From Acidimicrobiia bacterium (lineage in GTDB: Bacteria > Actinomycetota > Acidimicrobiia > Spongiisociales > ZC4RG35): a stretch of 64,000 bases of DNA. Below, one piece after another: positions 2,741 through 29,215 of this stretch. The first letter of the stretch is position 1, and each line of letters opens with the position of its first letter. The position numbers were made by a program, and so were the translations under genes. The notes under the pieces were generated by a model that was not told where the DNA came from, did no database searches, and worked only from the letters and a program-made list of their open reading frames with translations. The stretch lies in assembly GCA_035292685.1 (NCBI GenBank), contig DATDPP010000040.1:65398-129397 (forward strand), read 5' to 3'.

Positions 2741-4827
2741 GCTTGGAGCGGCTCGGTTCGGTGCGCTGGTGGATCGTTCCCCTGTCGCTGGCCACTGTAG
2801 CCGCCTTCGCATTCGGCCAACCTTTCCTCGACCTTCTCGGCCACAATCCTGACTTCTTCATCGCACGCGGGCTCACCTCGGTTGATGTGATCCTCTTTCC
2901 GATCGCGGTCCTCGTCTTGCCGGTTGTGCTCGCAGTCCCGGTGCTCGCCTTGCGACGGGTCGGGCCTCGCAGCGCCGGGCTCGCCCACGCCATCTGCATC
3001 GGCGGCCTGTTCGCCATGATGGTGGCCTCGGCTTGGATCGCCCTGCTGGGCTCCAACGTCGATTCGGTTGTGTTCGTGATTGCGACCATCGGGGCCGGGA
3101 CGTTGTTTGCGGTCGCTTTCACCCGGTATCCACTGGTGCGGAAGGCGGTCGGCTACGCGTCCTGGTCGCTGCTCGCCTTCACCGCCTGGTTCCTGCTGAT
3201 GACGCCCTCCAGCGATGTCGCCTTCGCCAGCCCTGGCGACCTCCCCGAGTTCGGTGAGGTTGCCAACCCGGTCCCGATAGTGATGCTGGTCTTCGACGAG
3301 TTCCCGGTGGCGACCATGATCGATTCCAGGGGAAACCTCCTGGACCATCTGTTCCCCAGTTTCGCCGAGCTCGCTGCCGACGGTGTTTGGTATCGGAATG
3401 GAGTCGGCGTGCGCCAACAGACCGAAGAGGCCCTGCCCACGATCCTCTCCGGGTTTGGGGCGAAAATGGGGAGTATTCCCATTTCGGCGGACCACCCCCT
3501 GAACCTGTTCACCCTGTTCGCCGACGCTTACGACATCGCGGCAATCGAGACGGTCACCAGTCTCTGCCCCGACTTCGCCTGTGAGAACTCGAGCCGTCAC
3601 ATCGACTCGCTGTCGCAACGGTGGAGTGCGATGGCCGTCGACCTCTCGGTGGTGTACGGCCATTTGACGATGCCCCGGGCCATCTCCGATCGGCTGCCGG
3701 CCATCGACCAGACGTGGGGAAACTTCACCACCGGTGATCGCTCGGAATTCGACATCATCGACCGTTTCCTGGCCAGCGTGGATGAGGACCGGCGAGAAGA
3801 GGTCACCCGCTTTCTCGACACCCTCGAGTTCGACGCGACCGAGCCACCGCTGCGATTCGGGCATTTCCTGTACCCCCATCATCCGTGGGACCTGACCGCG
3901 GACGGGCAACGCACCGGCGTCACTTGGTCCCCCGGGAGCGAGGGCCTAGGGTGGAAGACGGACAGATGGCTGGTGGGACAGGGCTACCAGCGGCACATCA
4001 TCCAGGCCCAGTATGCCGACACGATCCTGGGTCAGGTGATCGATCGCATGCAAGAGGAGGGCATCTACGACGAGGCGCTCCTGGTCGTGGTCGCCGACCA
4101 TGGCATAGCCATCCGCCCTGGGGTCGAGCACCAACGTGTGGTGACACCCGACACGGTTGGCTCGATCGCGGCGGTGCCTATGTTCGTCAAGTACCCGCGC
4201 CAGTTCCCCGATGTCGCGCCCGGGACCATCGATGACATCAGGGCAGAAACGGTTGATCTCCTGCCAACCGTGGCCCAGGTTGTCGGCGTCACCGTGCCCT
4301 GGGATATGGATGGGATCTCGCTTCTCGATCCCGATCGGGCAGCTCGCACCGAGTCGGTCATGGTCGGTAAGCAAGGATCGGTCCGATTCGGTGTCGGAGG
4401 GACTGAGAAACTGGATGCCGCGGCGGAGAAGGAGGTGTGGTTCCCGGACGGTGACCCATGGTCCCTCACCCCGCCTGGCTGGCAAGAGTGGCTGGGCCGG
4501 TCGCTGACAACCGTGGACCCGCTCGATGTGCCCGGGATCTCGATAATTGTCAAGCAGCAGAGTGCTCTCGACGCGTTGGCGTCGGACCCGGACGTCCTCC
4601 CCGCGTTCCTCTCGGGTGGGGTGACCCTCGAAGAGAACGCAACCGGAGAGGAGATACTGGTGGTTGCGGTTGACGGCGTGGCCCGGGCGATCACCAGGAC
4701 CTTCGACCCTCGAGCCAAATCGGCCTCATTCCACGTGCTGATCCCCCCTGAGCTGCTCCATCCCGGTCACAACGACGTGGTGGTCTGGCTGGCTACTGGA
4801 GGTCCCGAGGGGTCATTGCTGCGTTGA
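2737..4827 (+). CDS. Membrane-anchored alkaline-phosphatase/sulfatase-superfamily transferase (LtaS/EptA-like architecture)
   Basis: 696 aa. N-terminal TM block, then VMLVFDEFP (metal Asp), QTEEALPTILSG (Thr nucleophile region) and LVVVADHGIA (DH ligands), followed by a long C-terminal extension. Confidence 0.8.
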   Translation: MSLERLGSVRWWIVPLSLATVAAFAFGQPFLDLLGHNPDFFIARGLTSVDVILFPIAVLVLPVVLAVPVLALRRVGPRSAGLAHAICIGGLFAMMVASAWIALLGSNVDSVVFVIATIGAGTLFAVAFTRYPLVRKAVGYASWSLLAFTAWFLLMTPSSDVAFASPGDLPEFGEVANPVPIVMLVFDEFPVATMIDSRGNLLDHLFPSFAELAADGVWYRNGVGVRQQTEEALPTILSGFGAKMGSIPISADHPLNLFTLFADAYDIAAIETVTSLCPDFACENSSRHIDSLSQRWSAMAVDLSVVYGHLTMPRAISDRLPAIDQTWGNFTTGDRSEFDIIDRFLASVDEDRREEVTRFLDTLEFDATEPPLRFGHFLYPHHPWDLTADGQRTGVTWSPGSEGLGWKTDRWLVGQGYQRHIIQAQYADTILGQVIDRMQEEGIYDEALLVVVADHGIAIRPGVEHQRVVTPDTVGSIAAVPMFVKYPRQFPDVAPGTIDDIRAETVDLLPTVAQVVGVTVPWDMDGISLLDPDRAARTESVMVGKQGSVRFGVGGTEKLDAAAEKEVWFPDGDPWSLTPPGWQEWLGRSLTTVDPLDVPGISIIVKQQSALDALASDPDVLPAFLSGGVTLEENATGEEILVVAVDGVARAITRTFDPRAKSASFHVLIPPELLHPGHNDVVVWLATGGPEGSLLR

Positions 4828-4848
4828 CCGACCTGTCGAGAGGTGCCC

Positions 4849-7347
4849 TCAACGGGGAAGAGTCGCCGGGCTCTCGATGGCATAGTCACCGAACTCGGCG
4901 ATGACGGTCAGGCGCTCGACGTCGTCCGGGATCTTCTCGGCCGGGATGTCGAACGTATACCCGGAGTGGAGGAGGAGGTCGCTCTTGAACCAGCGCACCA
5001 CGTTCTCGTTGTCGAGGTTGGGCGGGCCGGACACCACCAATTGGTCCCCGGCGAACACGTAGATCCGATCGGCAGTGAGCTTTGCCTTGACGTCGGCCGC
5101 CCATCCTTTCACCAGCCAACCGGCATCGGTCTCACGTACCGCACTTATCTCGAGACGACGATCCCCTTCGGAGCGGATGTCGAGCTGATGGCCGTCTTCG
5201 GCTATGTAGTCCACGGTGATGTCGGCGGCGGCACCGGTGAGCCATCCCTTCCCTTGCGGATCCGGGATGAGGATTGACACCTCGTTGACGCCGTCTATCA
5301 ATAGCTCTTCGGCCAACAGACCTCGTATCTCTCCGCTGGTGTCGCTGTCCCTCATCACGAACCCGGTGCCGGCCACGGTTCCGTTGACGACCAGGAGCAG
5401 GTCGTCCCCCTTGACACCAGGGGGAAGCTCCAGACGACCCGATATGAACGTCGGCACCATCCCGGATGCACGGCTCACCGAGGACAGCTGATCAGCCTGG
5501 GTGAGCGACCAGTGCAAGTCGTTGCTCGGCCGCGGCGACAAATCGGACGCCGGGCTCCCGACCAATTCGGCGTAGGGCCCGGACCCGGCGATACTCATCC
5601 AACTTGTCTGGTCAGGCACCCATTGGTGGTTGCGCCGCACCTGTGCGAACAGCTCACCGATCTCGGTGCTTGCCGGATCCCGATTACAGCAGTAGTAGAT
5701 CGGCTCATGTGGCCGGTCGGTCCCTTCGATGGACAAAAGGGAACGACCGTCGAATTCCCAGTCGGTCGAGATGTCGAGTGCATCGACGATGGTGGGGACG
5801 ACGTCGATGGCGAAAACCGGCTCGTCGAACGTGGCGCCCTCGACCTGACCCGGAAGTTTGATGAACAACGGGATTCGGTAGAGATCGCTGAGATTGTCCT
5901 CCTCCGGCCAGCGCCGGTGCTCCCCTGGCACGAACGAGGCCCCGTGATCGGCAAGGACCACGATCAGGGAGTCGTCCCAGTTGCCCGTCTCGTCGAGGCG
6001 TTCGAAAAGTGCCCCCAGTCTCTGGTCGACAAACCCGAGTTGGTAGAGGTGTCGCTGGAAGGCAAGACGGGGCAGATCCGGCCGGATCACCCAGTGACCG
6101 CCGCCTTCAACCCCGTCGACCTCGTCGTATTGCTCCGGTCGCTCATAGTGGCTTCCCGACGGGTTGATCCTCCATGGGATGTGGGGAGCCTGAAGATGGG
6201 CGAAGTGCAGGGTGGGCGGGGCATCCTCTTCGACACCGTCGATGATCCGCTCGATCCAGTCCACCCACTTGCTCCTCACCCCGGAGGCGGGAACGGGCAG
6301 GTCCCCGATGTCGACCGGTGCAGCCTCACGAGCCTCGGCCTGGCCAAGGAATCCCTTCCAACTGCCATCGATGCTGGGGAGGTTCTCGCGGGCAGATTCG
6401 GGAAGGGAGAGATGGGCATAGACCACACCCACGTCCTCCAGGAGTGATGCAAAGCGCGCCGGGCCCCGGCCGGCGTAGTCCTTGCACAAATCTTCGGGGC
6501 ACATGTCGGTCAGCCACTCGACAACGTGCATCTCGTATCCCGCGCCGAGGAGGGTGAACAGGTTGTTGGGGTGATCGACCAGGGCAGGACTGTCGTCCTT
6601 CACTCCGAGACGGCCGCTGAGGATGGCCGGCACGCTGGCGGTGGTCGAGATCGAGTTGGACAGGGCGTTGCGATACCAGTTCCCGGAGGCGGCCAACCGT
6701 GCAAAATTGGGGAAAAGGGCGGCGTTGATGGCCCCGCTCTCATCCATCAACGATGCAGGCGGAAGCTCATCGAGTTGGATGAAGACGATCGACGCCGGTC
6801 GCCCTACCTGGTCCGGGGCAACACGGGGGGTTGCCGGCTCGGCCAATAGCTGGGAGGTGGGCGAGATGACCAGGAACATCACCAGGACCGCGGGCCCAAG
6901 GAGCGAGAAGAAGAGCAGCCCGGGCTCGATCCGCCGGCGGAGAAGGAGGACGACCCCGGCCACACCGATCGCCAGGGCCACCGCACCAACCGTGTTGTTT
7001 GGTATCACCTGGCGGCTTATGACCAAACCGGTCGCCGCAGCCGAGATCCCGACCAGCACGTAATAGGCGATGTCGGCACTCTGTCGGCTGATCGTCTCAG
7101 TGATCGTGAGGATGATTACCGCGAGGAGAGGCAGTGTGAATGTCACCAGCAGCCCGAACATGACGATTTGCCCCGGGGTGCTTCGATTGGCCACGAAGAC
7201 ACCCGGGTTCCTTCCGTAGAGGTCCAGAACCGGGGCGGCCACGCCTGCGGTCAGCAGGCCGAGGATGACCAATGAGCGCCGCCAGACGCGACGACGTCCG
7301 ATATTGGGCAAAGTCACGCCACTAAAAATACCTGGCCTTCGAATCAA
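4849..7347 (-). CDS. Membrane-anchored alkaline-phosphatase/sulfatase-superfamily transferase, paralog of 2737-4827
   Basis: 832 aa. N-terminal TM block, IVFIQLDELPP, ISTTASVPAILSG (resembles the TxxSxP nucleophile motif of phosphoethanolamine transferases), LIVVLADHGASF, and a long C-terminal extension. Start (TTG 7347) is uncertain. Confidence 0.8.
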   Translation of the reverse strand: MIRRPGIFSGVTLPNIGRRRVWRRSLVILGLLTAGVAAPVLDLYGRNPGVFVANRSTPGQIVMFGLLVTFTLPLLAVIILTITETISRQSADIAYYVLVGISAAATGLVISRQVIPNNTVGAVALAIGVAGVVLLLRRRIEPGLLFFSLLGPAVLVMFLVISPTSQLLAEPATPRVAPDQVGRPASIVFIQLDELPPASLMDESGAINAALFPNFARLAASGNWYRNALSNSISTTASVPAILSGRLGVKDDSPALVDHPNNLFTLLGAGYEMHVVEWLTDMCPEDLCKDYAGRGPARFASLLEDVGVVYAHLSLPESARENLPSIDGSWKGFLGQAEAREAAPVDIGDLPVPASGVRSKWVDWIERIIDGVEEDAPPTLHFAHLQAPHIPWRINPSGSHYERPEQYDEVDGVEGGGHWVIRPDLPRLAFQRHLYQLGFVDQRLGALFERLDETGNWDDSLIVVLADHGASFVPGEHRRWPEEDNLSDLYRIPLFIKLPGQVEGATFDEPVFAIDVVPTIVDALDISTDWEFDGRSLLSIEGTDRPHEPIYYCCNRDPASTEIGELFAQVRRNHQWVPDQTSWMSIAGSGPYAELVGSPASDLSPRPSNDLHWSLTQADQLSSVSRASGMVPTFISGRLELPPGVKGDDLLLVVNGTVAGTGFVMRDSDTSGEIRGLLAEELLIDGVNEVSILIPDPQGKGWLTGAAADITVDYIAEDGHQLDIRSEGDRRLEISAVRETDAGWLVKGWAADVKAKLTADRIYVFAGDQLVVSGPPNLDNENVVRWFKSDLLLHSGYTFDIPAEKIPDDVERLTVIAEFGDYAIESPATLPR

Positions 7348-27441: not shown

Positions 27442-27873
27442 TCAGGCGAGCACTGCCTGAACGGAGATCTCCACGTTGCCTTTCAATGCATTGGAGACCG
27501 GGCAACCATCCTTCGCCACGGCTGCGGCTTCCTGAAACTCCTCGGCGCCGATCCCGGGCACGTTACCCCTGACGCTCAAGGCCATCGTGGTGAGCCGCCA
27601 CCCCGGTTCCATCTTCTCGAAGGTGGCCTCGGCGGTGGTGTCGAGCCGAGCTGGTGGGAAGCCTCGGCCCGAGAGGCCATTGGAGAAGGCCATCGAGTAG
27701 CACGCCGCATGTGCCGCGGCGATCAACTCCTCGGGGCTGGTCTTTCCGTTGGCGGCCTCAGTCCGGCTCGGCCAGCTGACCGGGAGGTCAGACGCCACGC
27801 CACTAGCGAGGCTGGCCGTCCCCGACCCGGTGAAGAGATCCCCTTCCCAGGTGGCAGTGGCACGACTTTGCAT
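27442..27873 (-). CDS. osmC: OsmC-family peroxiredoxin
   Basis: 143 aa. WEGDLFTGSGT, SPEELIAAAHAACYSMAF and KDGCPVSNAL align along the full length with E. coli OsmC, including both catalytic Cys. Confidence 0.85.
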   Translation of the reverse strand: MQSRATATWEGDLFTGSGTASLASGVASDLPVSWPSRTEAANGKTSPEELIAAAHAACYSMAFSNGLSGRGFPPARLDTTAEATFEKMEPGWRLTTMALSVRGNVPGIGAEEFQEAAAVAKDGCPVSNALKGNVEISVQAVLA

Positions 27874-27939
27874 GGATGCTCCTGTCTGTCGACGTCCAAG
27901 CAGAGCCTACGTAACCCGGCCCCCGGGGTCCGAATCGAC

Positions 27940-28290
27940 CTATACGCCGACGGAGACCGGGGGCATGAGGACCTGGCGGATCTCGTCGAGACGCTGCGAC
28001 ACCACTCGATAGTGAACCCATCGACCCTCACGATTCCCGGTCACCAGACCGGCCTCGCGCAGGATCTTGAGATGGTGTGACACAGTCGGCTGACTGAGTC
28101 CCAGAGGTGACTCGAGCTCGCAGCCACAAGCAGTTCCGCCCGGTGCCGCGGCCAGCAAGGAGACGATTCGGAGACGGACCGGGTCGCCGAGCGCGGCTAT
28201 CGCCTTTGCGGTCTCCACCGCATCCTTCTCCTCGATGACCCCCTCGAACACTGGCGTGCAACAGAACTCCATGCCCATATATTGACACAT
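27940..28290 (-). CDS. ArsR/SmtB-family metalloregulator or thiol-sensing repressor
   Basis: wHTH core RLRIVSLLAAAPGGTACGCELESPLGLSQPTVSHHLKILREAGLV. It has a CGC in the alpha3 CxC position and an N-terminal CC pair (MEFCC). The true start could be Met1, Met5 or Met7. Confidence 0.85.
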   Translation of the reverse strand: MCQYMGMEFCCTPVFEGVIEEKDAVETAKAIAALGDPVRLRIVSLLAAAPGGTACGCELESPLGLSQPTVSHHLKILREAGLVTGNREGRWVHYRVVSQRLDEIRQVLMPPVSVGV

Positions 28291-28332
28291 CTCGATTCAT
28301 CGACCAAGATAAATATATCGAAGGTCATCGAT
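28277..28332. promoter_or_regulatory. AT-rich divergent control region with dyad symmetry and a -35-like TTGACA
   Basis: Dyad ATATATT (28277-28283) ... TCGAT (28292-28296) / ATCGA (28299-28303) ... AATATAT (28312-28318), symmetric about 28297/28298. Second repeat ATCGA (28317-28321) N6 TCGAT (28328-28332). TTGACA at 28282-28287 with CAAGAT 17 nt downstream. Confidence 0.4.
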
Positions 28333-28347
28333 CTAAAAGGAGATGAG

Positions 28348-28407
28348 ATGACCATCCACGAAGACCCATCTGGATGTTGCGGTGGTGGCGGCTGCTGCTG
28401 CTGCTGA
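28348..28407 (+). CDS. Poly-cysteine micro-ORF, 19 aa: MTIHEDPSGCCGGGGCCCC
   Basis: Not in the track (under 60 aa). ATG 28348 is preceded by AAAGGAG (28336-28342). Stop is TGA 28405-28407, and a terminator hairpin follows 16 nt later. Six Cys and five Gly fall in the last 11 residues. Coding status is inferred only from signal architecture. Confidence 0.5.
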   Translation: MTIHEDPSGCCGGGGCCCC

Positions 28408-28423
28408 CAGATGACCCGGCCCG

Positions 28424-28448
28424 GGCGCTGCTCTAGCCGAGCAGCGCC
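28424..28448. terminator. Bidirectional hairpin between the micro-ORF and the convergent nuclease gene
   Basis: GGCGCTGCTC (28424-28433), loop TAGCC, GAGCAGCGCC (28439-28448) form a perfect 10-bp stem. The loop/stem contains the nuclease stop codon (CTA 28433-28435 on the + strand). Confidence 0.55.
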
Positions 28449-29215
28449 TCGGTCGCCTGACCCTCGGCACACTCTGCGAGGAGCGGGCAGTAGCGACACC
28501 AGGGCCCGCCGGTTCGCAACGGCTCCACACCCGAGGACCACGCCCGGCGAATCTCGTTGACCAGGCCGCCAACCTCTGTGGCCACCCGGTTGATGTCTCC
28601 CGAGGAGGGGACGGTGCGGTAGCGCTCCCCGGTCCGCACCGACACCGCCTCTACATACGCCGGTATCTCGCCCTTCTCCATGGTCCAGAGCAGTGCGTAG
28701 AACAGAAGCTGATCCTCGGGCTCACCGAGGTCTCCCGTCTTCCAATCGACGAGCCGATGCCCGCCGAGATCCTCCCGATAGACGGCATCCACTGATCCGA
28801 CCAATTCCACGCCCTCCGCCGGCTCGCTGACGACCGACACCTCTGATCCCTCGAATCCCTCGGTAGGCAGCCTGGTGAAGCGCTCGTACAAGCCGCGCAC
28901 CTCCTCAATCACGGAGGCGAGGATCGAAGGCTTCAACTCGAGGCCCGCCAGCTTGTTGTTGAGCGGCGATCCACCGATCTCCTCCTTGCACGCCTGAACG
29001 AACTCTTCGGAGCCGATCGGGCCCCCGGTCAGGTGCCGGCTGAAGATTCGGTGGGCCAGGCTCCCGAGGAAAGCTGGTCGGGTGTCAGGGCCGTAGATCC
29101 CCTGTAGACGGGCGTTCGCCTGCCCGGCGCATTTCTTGTACGTGACGTAAATGGACGCCGAAACTCGAATACGGTCGCCATCGATCACTGTTGGGAACAC
29201 CACCGTCACCAACAT
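28433..29215 (-). CDS. PD-(D/E)XK nuclease, Cas4/AddB-like with predicted 4Fe-4S cysteine signature
   Basis: 260 aa. VDAVY ... RLVDWKTG (D...(D/E)xK). One N-terminal Cys (KKCAG) plus C-terminal CRYCPLLAEC (CxxCx5C). Confidence 0.7.
   Translation of the reverse strand: MLVTVVFPTVIDGDRIRVSASIYVTYKKCAGQANARLQGIYGPDTRPAFLGSLAHRIFSRHLTGGPIGSEEFVQACKEEIGGSPLNNKLAGLELKPSILASVIEEVRGLYERFTRLPTEGFEGSEVSVVSEPAEGVELVGSVDAVYREDLGGHRLVDWKTGDLGEPEDQLLFYALLWTMEKGEIPAYVEAVSVRTGERYRTVPSSGDINRVATEVGGLVNEIRRAWSSGVEPLRTGGPWCRYCPLLAECAEGQATEALLG

Follow-up and report, generated by a model that had tools for sequence, protein, structure and literature searches.

The pairing of an ArsR/SmtB repressor with a thiolate-rich product that sequesters or chaperones is a known principle, of which SmtB-SmtA, ArsR-ArsD, and AntR-AntC are examples. 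Here, we analyze a 64,000-nucleotide stretch of DNA from an Acidimicrobiia bacterium ("the window"; contig DATDPP010000040.1), in which an ArsR/SmtB repressor gene (arsR) is divergent from an unannotated gene of 19 codons, hereafter called the micro-gene. The locus can be viewed as a two-gene module that would be made up of a thiolate-sensing ArsR repressor and, as the one target found locally, an acidic peptide of 19 residues whose adjacent cysteines form two clusters, the second at the very end of the chain. We propose, with a confidence that is evenly poised, that the product of the micro-gene, derepressed through ArsR, would be a thiolate peptide that buffers or chaperones As(III), Sb(III), or organoarsenicals by binding them. 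What would set this locus and its relatives apart from the described systems is the size of the peptides (11-30 residues), their vicinal pairs with a Cys-Cys (CC) at the C-terminus, the arsenic context in Actinomycetota, the minimal module of a sensor plus a peptide, and an apparent equivalence with the tails of enzymes.

In SmtB-SmtA, as in the window, an ArsR/SmtB repressor is divergent from a small Cys-rich product and operator dyads are found in the shared intergenic region. However, SmtA has about 56 residues, folds like a zinc finger, and binds Zn and Cd through Cys/His ligands, whereas the micro-peptides of the window and its orthologues have 17-20 residues, match no profile, are dominated by adjacent CC pairs, and go with an ArsR family tied to arsenic genes. 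The 19-residue peptide has the divergent ArsR/SmtB gene of SmtA/BmtA-type metallothioneins and lacks their family profile and their Cys/His fold of 50-60 residues. ArsD is also ars-regulated, binds As(III) via the vicinal pairs Cys12-13, 112-113, and 119-120, buffers it, and hands it on (PMC12607644). In contrast to the micro-peptide, which has no ArsD profile match and no fold or sequence in common with it, ArsD is a folded protein of about 120 residues that partners the ArsA ATPase. AntC, from the Comamonas antRCA system, is a small accessory protein under control of the ArsR/SmtB-family AntR; it sequesters Sb(III) and passes it to the exporter (PMC12641948). Compared by description only, AntC differs in being proteobacterial, in having a P-type ATPase as partner, and in being encoded in the same operon as its regulator. 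Small thiol-rich peptides that sequester thiophilic metals or arsenic also include MymT and phytochelatins. MymT has 53 residues and is specific for Cu(I), phytochelatins are made enzymatically from glutathione and not on ribosomes, and neither is related in sequence to the micro-peptide.

Two further comparisons concern the cysteines themselves. The mycobacterial polycysteine short open reading frames (ORFs; Ms5788A and others) are leaderless first cistrons of cysteine-metabolism operons, and they act in cis via RNA structure over the following gene's ribosome-binding site (10.1101/834739). Like the micro-gene, they are unannotated actinobacterial short ORFs with a run of Cys codons at the C-terminal end. 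Unlike them, the micro-gene is led by a Shine-Dalgarno (SD) sequence with a predicted leader, its orthologues have no downstream cistron at any of 34 loci, and its relatives can follow arsC. Finally, CCIPGCC, CCPDIGCC, and CCGGGxxCC in the micro-peptide family resemble the tetracysteine tag CCxxCC (CCPGCC), in which each Cys pair binds one arsenic atom of a biarsenical dye (FlAsH or ReAsH). The tag is synthetic and not natural, and the likeness is taken as a lead on binding chemistry, not as evidence.

The micro-gene was brought out by the initial annotation of the window, which had proposed an ORF encoding MTIHEDPSGCCGGGGCCCC behind the SD AAAGGAG with a 5-nucleotide (nt) spacer; coordinates, reading frame, product, and SD were all found in the window sequence (Table 1). 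It is the sole ATG-started ORF of 10-40 codons with at least five Cys on either strand of the window. Its cysteines are arranged as CC plus CCCC, and the relatives all show CC...CC. A two-codon ORF, ATG AGA TGA (28343-28351), overlaps the start of the micro-gene in another frame; it is not kept in the orthologues and is probably incidental.

The strongest evidence for the micro-gene is comparative. ArsR homologues were gathered from 185,579 species genomes, and the seven nearest (66-91% identity), from metagenome-assembled genomes (MAGs) of Acidimicrobiia type, have a divergent micro-ORF in the same place in every case (7/7). Orthologues were then sought across the same genomes with a string joining operator and SD, ATCGAAGNTCNTCNATNNNAANGGAG; the search with ATCGAAGNTCNTCNAT plus the SD gave 37 matches, 34 of them orthologous loci and three chance matches in unrelated phyla. 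All carriers in the lineage of the window are MAGs. At each of the 34 loci, an ATG or GTG follows GGAG by 2-7 nt, usually 5, the SD having the form GAA(A/G)GGAG. The 34 distinct sequences all contain an ORF of 17-20 codons in frame 0, and none has one in either other frame. The 27 distinct peptides share M-x3-(D/E)D-x2-G-CC-GGG(G)-xx-CC(C/G), so that the Gly3-4 linker, the acidic N-terminal half, and the CC at the exact C-terminus are kept at the protein level beyond the cysteines. The codons vary under these constant residues: TGC occurs 17 times and TGT 13 times at Cys column 11, the first Cys pair uses both about equally, and all four Gly codons are found at column 17 with the amino acid unchanged. 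Every length change or indel among the orthologous micro-genes is in frame, and the micro-gene is retained across ArsR divergence down to 61% identity. The single His of the window peptide is not conserved. On this pattern of substitution, the micro-gene is a conserved coding gene. The initial annotation had asked whether the frame is genuinely conserved in relatives or broken by indels; all 34 sequences keep the frame, with synonymous changes, and no ORF-breaking indel was observed.

The number of C-terminal Cys (2-4) and of Gly (2-6) varies between close relatives (window 28375-28404; columns 14-21), which looks like microsatellite-type slippage in the (TGC)n and (GGN)n tracts of a coding micro-gene.

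Gene order in the orthologous loci is P450, FAH-family ORF, DUF1697, (OsmC), ArsR <> micro-ORF >< nuclease, 634-residue ORF, where the FAH-family label and a VanW-like label for the 634-residue ORF were given from sequence without a domain search. The pair formed by ArsR and the micro-ORF is present in 34/34 loci, and no co-oriented gene was found downstream of the micro-ORF in any of these 34. Among the conserved neighbors (ArsR, (OsmC), DUF1697, the nuclease, and the 634-residue ORF), there is no maturase, modification, or export gene of the kind that a precursor of a ribosomally made, post-translationally modified peptide (methanobactin-like) would have.

Ten family peptides of at least 20 residues had no match in Pfam or NCBIfam, even at E up to 10; the 41-residue extended frame of the window had none in Pfam (E<=0.01) or NCBIfam (E<=1), and Rfam gave none at E up to 1 for both strands of 27800-28800. 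When 20 candidate peptides were looked up exactly in a collection of 15 billion proteins, 19 were absent, and the single match is an unnamed 41-residue JGI gene call for a Leifsonia-type ORF. A full-text literature search returned no description of ArsR-linked Cys-rich micro-ORFs; its coverage is incomplete and an earlier description is possible.

Upstream of the micro-gene, the GC content falls to 37.5% over 28260-28339 as compared to 60-74% in the flanks, which bears out the AT-rich stretch reported earlier. The promoter elements proposed at the same time, TTGACA and CAAGAT, are present at their sites, but CAAGAT is weak: since it matches TATAAT at 3/6 positions only, a consensus promoter scan of the locus calls no promoter. 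CAAGAT does agree with nAnnnT, the looser actinobacterial -10 pattern, and the orthologues carry GAGTAT or AATGAT at the same -10 spacing. This putative -10 is located about 38 nt upstream of the micro-gene start. The 42-bp dyad of the initial annotation did not hold; it is imperfect, with 13/21 positions complementary, and the conserved elements are instead two short TCGAT/ATCGA dyads, each found once in the window for a chance expectation of about 0.15. In an alignment of eight loci, the near-invariant intergenic elements are ATATTGACA (invariant there), the two dyads, the SD, and the start codon; dyad 1 is partly kept in the orthologues. These conserved dyads in the promoter and leader of the micro-gene agree with the pairing with an ArsR/SmtB repressor that had been suggested.

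The micro-gene is followed by a hairpin, described beforehand as a perfect 10-bp stem and found as such, with GGCGCTGCTC (28424-28433) pairing with GAGCAGCGCC (28439-28448). It can be extended to 17-nt arms (82% complementary), and in the window it begins 10-17 nt after the stop codon. The fold of the whole micro-gene transcript has z = -4.06. The stem is kept in 33 orthologous sequences with compensatory changes, as for instance at pair 121/148 (GC 16, AU 10, GU 6, CG 1). Its 3' arm is within the last codons of the convergent nuclease gene, the stop codon of which is in the loop region, and covariation links the non-coding 5' arm to the coding one. Because the 3' arm is inside the end of the nuclease gene, the hairpin is probably a terminator common to both transcripts; a terminator consensus scan of the locus gave no site, and the hairpin has no T-run.

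Two other RNA structures were considered and not retained. In the window, folding predicts a 5' hairpin in which GAAGGUCAUC pairs with the start region and would sequester the start site, but the orthologues do not support it; their consensus fold of the 5' region retains the invariant operator dyad only, without covariation. A hairpin inside the ORF would pair Gly with Cys codons; its "compensatory" changes are limited to a single clade, and it is not considered established.

Table 1. Features of the micro-gene locus (positions are those of the window)
Feature	Position	Strand	Remarks
Micro-gene, 19 codons + stop, product MTIHEDPSGCCGGGGCCCC	28348-28407	+	ATG 28348-28350, TGA 28405-28407
Shine-Dalgarno AAAGGAG	28336-28342	+	5-nt gap to ATG
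Putative -35 of the micro-gene, TTGACA	28282-28287	+	predicted promoter element
Putative weak -10, CAAGAT	28305-28310	+	predicted; 17 nt 3' of the -35
Dyad 1, TCGAT-TC-ATCGA	28292-28303		between -35 and -10; putative ArsR operator
Dyad 2, ATCGA-AGGTCA-TCGAT	28317-28332		between -10 and SD; putative ArsR operator
GC-rich hairpin without T-run	28417-28455		core 28424-28448; likely bidirectional terminator
ArsR/SmtB repressor, 110 residues from MEFCCTPV	27940-28272	-	Cys4-Cys5 and alpha3 Cys48-x-Cys50 (ACGCE)
OsmC-family peroxiredoxin, accessory	27442-27873	-	TIGR03562, 162 bits vs cutoff 85.8
PD-(D/E)XK nuclease	28433-29215	-	convergent

The divergent gene had been assigned to the ArsR/SmtB family, with an N-terminal CC and a CGC. 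Indeed, its product matches HTH_5 (PF01022, E=1.7e-16) and NCBIfam HTH_metalloreg (NF033788, 95.6 bits vs. a cutoff of 55), CC being residues 4-5 and CGC residues 48-50; the NCBIfam list also includes CmtR (E=4.6e-12) and, among the weaker matches, BigR-type sulfur sensing. The nearest solved structure is that of the As(III) sensor CgArsR (6J0E, E=5.8e-17). In the 6J0E alignment, Cys4-Cys5 of the repressor face Cys15-Cys16 of CgArsR, which are As(III) ligands (PMC12607644). Cys48-x-Cys50 is a few columns off the third-ligand position, Cys55 of CgArsR, and stands at the classical alpha3 CxC position. Conservation across the family covers both sites, as N-terminal xCCxP and alpha3 ACxC(D/E).

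No SD is recognizable before arsR, and a minus-strand CAATAT is found about 6-7 nt before its ATG in the window and in L001-L007 (about 4 nt in L003; loci are designated by L numbers). This possible -10 of arsR overlaps the TTGACA of the micro-gene on the opposite strand. The arsR mRNA may thus be leaderless and the divergent promoters overlapping, so that one bound repressor could shut both.

The OsmC gene after arsR and the convergent nuclease gene, both noted earlier, were found where they had been placed. osmC is probably co-transcribed with arsR. It stands between arsR and the DUF1697 gene in the subclade of the window only (8/34 orthologous loci); in the remaining loci, arsR is directly followed by the convergent DUF1697 gene or, in a few, there is no DUF1697 match. 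On this distribution, osmC is a recent addition to the predicted arsR transcript and not a core part of the module.

The arsenic context comes from the wider family of this ArsR, surveyed in about 160 loci fetched with two ArsR queries. The partners there are ArsI/CadI followed by an aquaporin, ArsC of low-molecular-weight protein tyrosine phosphatase type, an ArsO-like flavoprotein, or an aquaporin directly after arsR. Two plasmid loci annotated in RefSeq were inspected, and neither has an annotated micro-gene: in Clavibacter, ArsR is divergent from ACR3-ArsC-flavoprotein, and in Rathayibacter, the flavoprotein is divergent from arsR, with a major intrinsic protein (MIP)/aquaporin and a second oxidoreductase a few genes off on the arsR strand. 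A P-type heavy-metal ATPase adjoins ArsR in one related plasmid locus. The TCGAT/ATCGA dyads recur in Microbacteriaceae promoters adjoining this ArsR family, and the promoters of Leifsonia, L134, and L143 likewise have ATTGACA upstream. Where a micro-ORF is missing, arsC is driven directly by ATTGACA, TCGAT-type dyads, and a strong SD; the micro-gene of the window would therefore be under the family-wide promoter of arsenic operons. Because CgArsR is the nearest structure and arsenic genes flank the ArsR family, the context favors arsenic or a different metalloid over the generic metals of metallothioneins, as far as sequence can tell.

Beside these operons, two genes of the survey deserve a mention. 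In L143 (2250-2560, minus strand), the gene after arsC encodes ...EGSTSCCSADAFDAPDVFGSVLYD...LGCGNP, which, from sequence alone and without a profile, resembles arsenite methyltransferases of the ArsM type and has a CC near its N-terminus. In L055 and L073 (about 4710-5122, minus strand), an ORF of about 250-290 residues near ArsR ends in ...EAWRGEG(S/C)CAPAT(P/S)QGC(T/S)DGCC(D/E), one more tail rich in Cys and closing with CC close to a gene of this ArsR family, and could be a cation-efflux protein.

Analogous micro-ORFs occur outside Acidimicrobiia. About 24 further genomes have ORFs of 11-30 codons, preceded by an SD and adjoining this ArsR, in Leifsonia, Subtercola, Humibacter, Gryllotalpicola, Pseudolysinimonas, Microbacterium, Curtobacterium, Leucobacter, Amnibacterium, a Demequinaceae MAG, and others. 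With them, conserved but unannotated micro-genes are carried by about 58 genomes of two actinobacterial classes. The encoded peptides are acidic with few basic residues (no more than two Arg were permitted in the scan), and CC occurs both within them and at their end, as in MGCCDTDECQTLPDGSCAPDCC, MDECCDPSVCPPECLAGCTPDCC, MDDCCDTGCCC, MCEDNGCCTPGCC, MDVLRDPCCPPDCCPPGCC, and ...AESCCIPGCC. Elsewhere in the about 0.5 Mb scanned, the same filter gave only about three comparable ORFs. Most of these micro-ORFs follow the operator and precede arsC, from which a GC hairpin separates them, and in about 15 Microbacteriaceae loci the distance to arsC is 100-180 nt. In four genomes, the micro-ORF comes after arsC, as the last gene of the operon before the hairpin (M(T/N)GDDECCPDIGCC and relatives), and in L140, L147, and L177 it stands alone. 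A product acting in trans would be expected to vary in position in this way, whereas a leader peptide would not. Because its position relative to arsC varies and no co-oriented gene is downstream in 34/34 Acidimicrobiia loci, the peptide would be a product rather than a cis-acting leader.

In Ruicaihuangia caeni (L128, 2560-3010, minus strand), a 55-codon ORF (MFGINADAW...APAPACC) is located between the ArsR operator and arsC; its product is basic rather than acidic and has only the terminal CC, and the ORF might be related to the micro-ORFs as another type or a degenerate form.

A related element is tethered to enzymes. Nearly all the ArsI/CadI proteins and ArsO-like flavoproteins paired with this ArsR family have a low-complexity C-terminal tail that ends in CC, CCS, or CCG and usually holds another Cys or CC 10-25 residues upstream (for example ...GDGQCCIPEAIQAVPVSVGGGQRQSSSCC); ArsC of these loci has no such tail. 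The tailed ArsI/CadI are those of L008, L012, L024, L025, L029-L034, L040, L043, L051, L053, L066, L068, L069, L072, and L075, and the flavoproteins those of L017, L019, L027, L037, L041, L049, L057, L059, L062, L079, L122, L126, L130, L138, L141, L146, and others. The arsC operons examined have either a tailed flavoprotein or a micro-ORF, never both. Since the tails end in CC like the micro-peptide, the latter looks like a free-standing copy of the tail. To our knowledge, no function has been established for the tails of ArsI/CadI and of the flavoproteins. The Cys pair at the C-terminus of MerA acquires Hg(II) and passes it to the active site. All these tails share with the micro-peptide a flexible acidic or Gly/Ser/Pro-rich segment ending with CC at or near the C-terminus; they are tethered, whereas the micro-peptide has a gene to itself, complete with promoter, SD, and terminator. 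ArsD binds its metalloid, and ArsI its substrate, at vicinal Cys pairs (PMC12607644). That the micro-gene is at present the decayed tail of a CadI/ArsI gene was rejected on account of its own conserved SD and start and by its maintenance across ArsR divergence; an origin from a CadI/ArsI tail remnant is possible.

Put together, these observations suggest how the module might work. From sequence, we infer binding of the repressor to DNA, the identity of the inducer, translation of the micro-gene, and binding of the metalloid by the peptide. The ArsR dimer, on both TCGAT/ATCGA dyads, would shut the promoter of the micro-gene and the overlapping arsR-osmC promoter. As(III), Sb(III), or a trivalent organoarsenical would then bind the N-terminal Cys-Cys and the alpha3 Cys-x-Cys, and DNA would be released. 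An mRNA of about 130 nt, ending at the hairpin, would be efficiently translated from the strong ribosome-binding site. The vicinal Cys pairs on their flexible Gly3-4 linker would chelate the metalloid, each As(III) being held by three thiolates or each R-As(III) by one pair. The peptide would act as an inducible buffer or as a diffusible hand-off arm that protects protein dithiols; it may hand the metalloid over to proteins that export or modify it, and the lower concentration of free inducer would restore repression. More broadly, the micro-ORFs may form a widespread unannotated class of ribosomally encoded, phytochelatin-like As/Sb-binding peptides, the smallest gene-encoded metal(loid) ligands known, acting as diffusible counterparts of the "swinging-arm" tails that end in CC on actinobacterial ArsI/CadI and ars flavoproteins and, in Acidimicrobiia, as the sole effector of a minimal sensor-plus-sponge module; we hold this generalization tentatively, a little short of an even chance.

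Several points weigh against a role in arsenic handling. The best family of the repressor, the Rv2640c equivalog NF041413, is matched with 97.8 bits, below its cutoff of 155; the relatives from Leifsonia and L036 are under this cutoff too. The window ArsR is only about 50% identical to ArsRs within ars clusters, and its specificity could differ from theirs. Its N-terminal Cys and alpha3 CxC are also the Cd/Pb-type alpha3N ligand set of CadC. No other ars gene was found in the window among those tested (ACR3, ArsC, ArsI, MIP, flavoprotein, and P-type ATPase), and therefore the link to arsenic in this lineage rests on the repressor family and the ligand set. The osmC gene in the subclade of the window hints at a redox role. 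Acidimicrobiia and Microbacteriaceae peptides do not align beyond CC...CC, and a common function is therefore deduced from position and composition. Finally, with tracts as prone to slippage as (TGC)n and (GGN)n, some of the variation in Cys number may be neutral.

Some of these points would suit a generic soft-metal mini-metallothionein for Cd(II), Hg(II), Pb(II), Zn(II), or Cu(I), controlled by a CadC- or CmtR-like Cd/Pb sensor, which we regard as unlikely. The four thiolates of the repressor recall the alpha3N site of CadC, CmtR is in the NCBIfam list of the repressor, and CadI is cadmium-induced in Mycobacterium tuberculosis. The P-type heavy-metal ATPase beside ArsR at one plasmid locus and the SmtB-SmtA precedent of a repressor divergent from a thiolate protein go in the same direction. 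However, the recurrent partners of the ArsR family are the arsenic genes ACR3, ArsC, ArsI, and aquaporin, and no metallothionein profile is matched. Besides, adjacent CC pairs are described as ill-suited to chelating one metal ion (PMC8960804), whereas they are known sites for As(III) and organoarsenicals (PMC12607644).

The micro-ORF could also sense the supply of Cys or thiols, ribosome stalling on its Cys codons at low Cys-tRNA (as in thiol depletion) altering folding or termination and thereby controlling arsC or antisense read-through into the nuclease gene. The mycobacterial polycysteine ORFs give a precedent (10.1101/834739), the 15 or so Microbacteriaceae loci have the succession micro-ORF, GC-rich hairpin, arsC, and the stop codon in the window is close to the hairpin. 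Nevertheless, such a mechanism is improbable here. It fits poorly with the 34 loci devoid of a co-oriented downstream gene and with the micro-ORFs placed last, after arsC, in four genomes or standing alone in three loci; the initial annotation had already judged an attenuator less fitting, given that nothing co-oriented follows the micro-gene in the window. Moreover, the SD is conserved and a leader is predicted, unlike in the leaderless mycobacterial ORFs, features other than Cys are kept at the protein level, and no cysteine-metabolism genes are nearby.

In a redox module, ArsR would sense peroxide or disulfide stress by its vicinal cysteines and the peptide would be a sacrificial or exchangeable thiol working with OsmC. 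This reading, to which we give just as little credit as to Cys sensing, draws on the OsmC peroxiredoxin gene after arsR in the window, on the BigR-type sulfur sensors among the weaker matches of the repressor, and on RexT, an ArsR-family protein that senses H2O2 by a vicinal disulfide (PMC8960804). But osmC is present in 8/34 orthologous loci only, while ArsR and the micro-ORF are in all, the wider ArsR family is partnered with arsenic genes, and the RexT-type switch was reported to be confined to Nostocales (PMC8960804).

Alternatively, the peptide might modulate a protein (ArsR, ArsC, or an efflux protein) by binding to it and not be a metalloid ligand itself. Many bacterial micro-proteins work by binding larger proteins, and the peptide shows tight linkage to ArsR and, in many cases, linkage to ArsC. 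Its extreme divergence outside the Cys pairs is, however, better suited to a chemical ligand than to a protein interface, and the partner genes vary between lineages; we find this version slightly more doubtful still. Lastly, although the ORF is missing from the annotation, has very few codons, and includes (TGC)n and (GGN)n tracts that are liable to slippage, it is very improbable that it is a non-functional by-product of the conserved promoter/operator and GC-rich repeats, given that frame, start, SD, length, and Cys pairs are retained in 34/34 diverged sequences with synonymous changes, that analogous ORFs are at like positions in about 24 further genomes, and that only about three comparable ORFs were found elsewhere in about 0.5 Mb.

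Should the peptide be produced and bind toxins of the arsenic type, it would be a new, very small component of bacterial arsenic and metal defense and a gene-encoded counterpart of plant phytochelatins, and it would account for the Cys-pair tails of actinobacterial arsenic enzymes. A conserved gene family of about 58 genomes in two actinobacterial classes would then have escaped annotation by falling under length cutoffs. The module is compact, with a repressor, an operator, and a 60-nt gene, and the peptide would be cheap to synthesize; its parts might be of use in arsenic biosensing or sequestration.

Some genome titles in the collection disagree with the loci that they carry. Many carrier MAGs of one project, with isolate names starting in MFD (L001, L003, L005, and a large part of L081-L116), bear the title "uncultured Acidobacteriota bacterium", and their loci are syntenic with those of Acidimicrobiia/Acidimicrobiaceae MAGs and 60-90% identical to them in protein, so that the taxonomy in the titles seems to be in error. 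The same goes for "Streptomyces sp. L7" (L020/L140), where the locus is of Leifsonia type, and for a MAG titled "Synechococcus sp." (L151), where it is actinobacterial.

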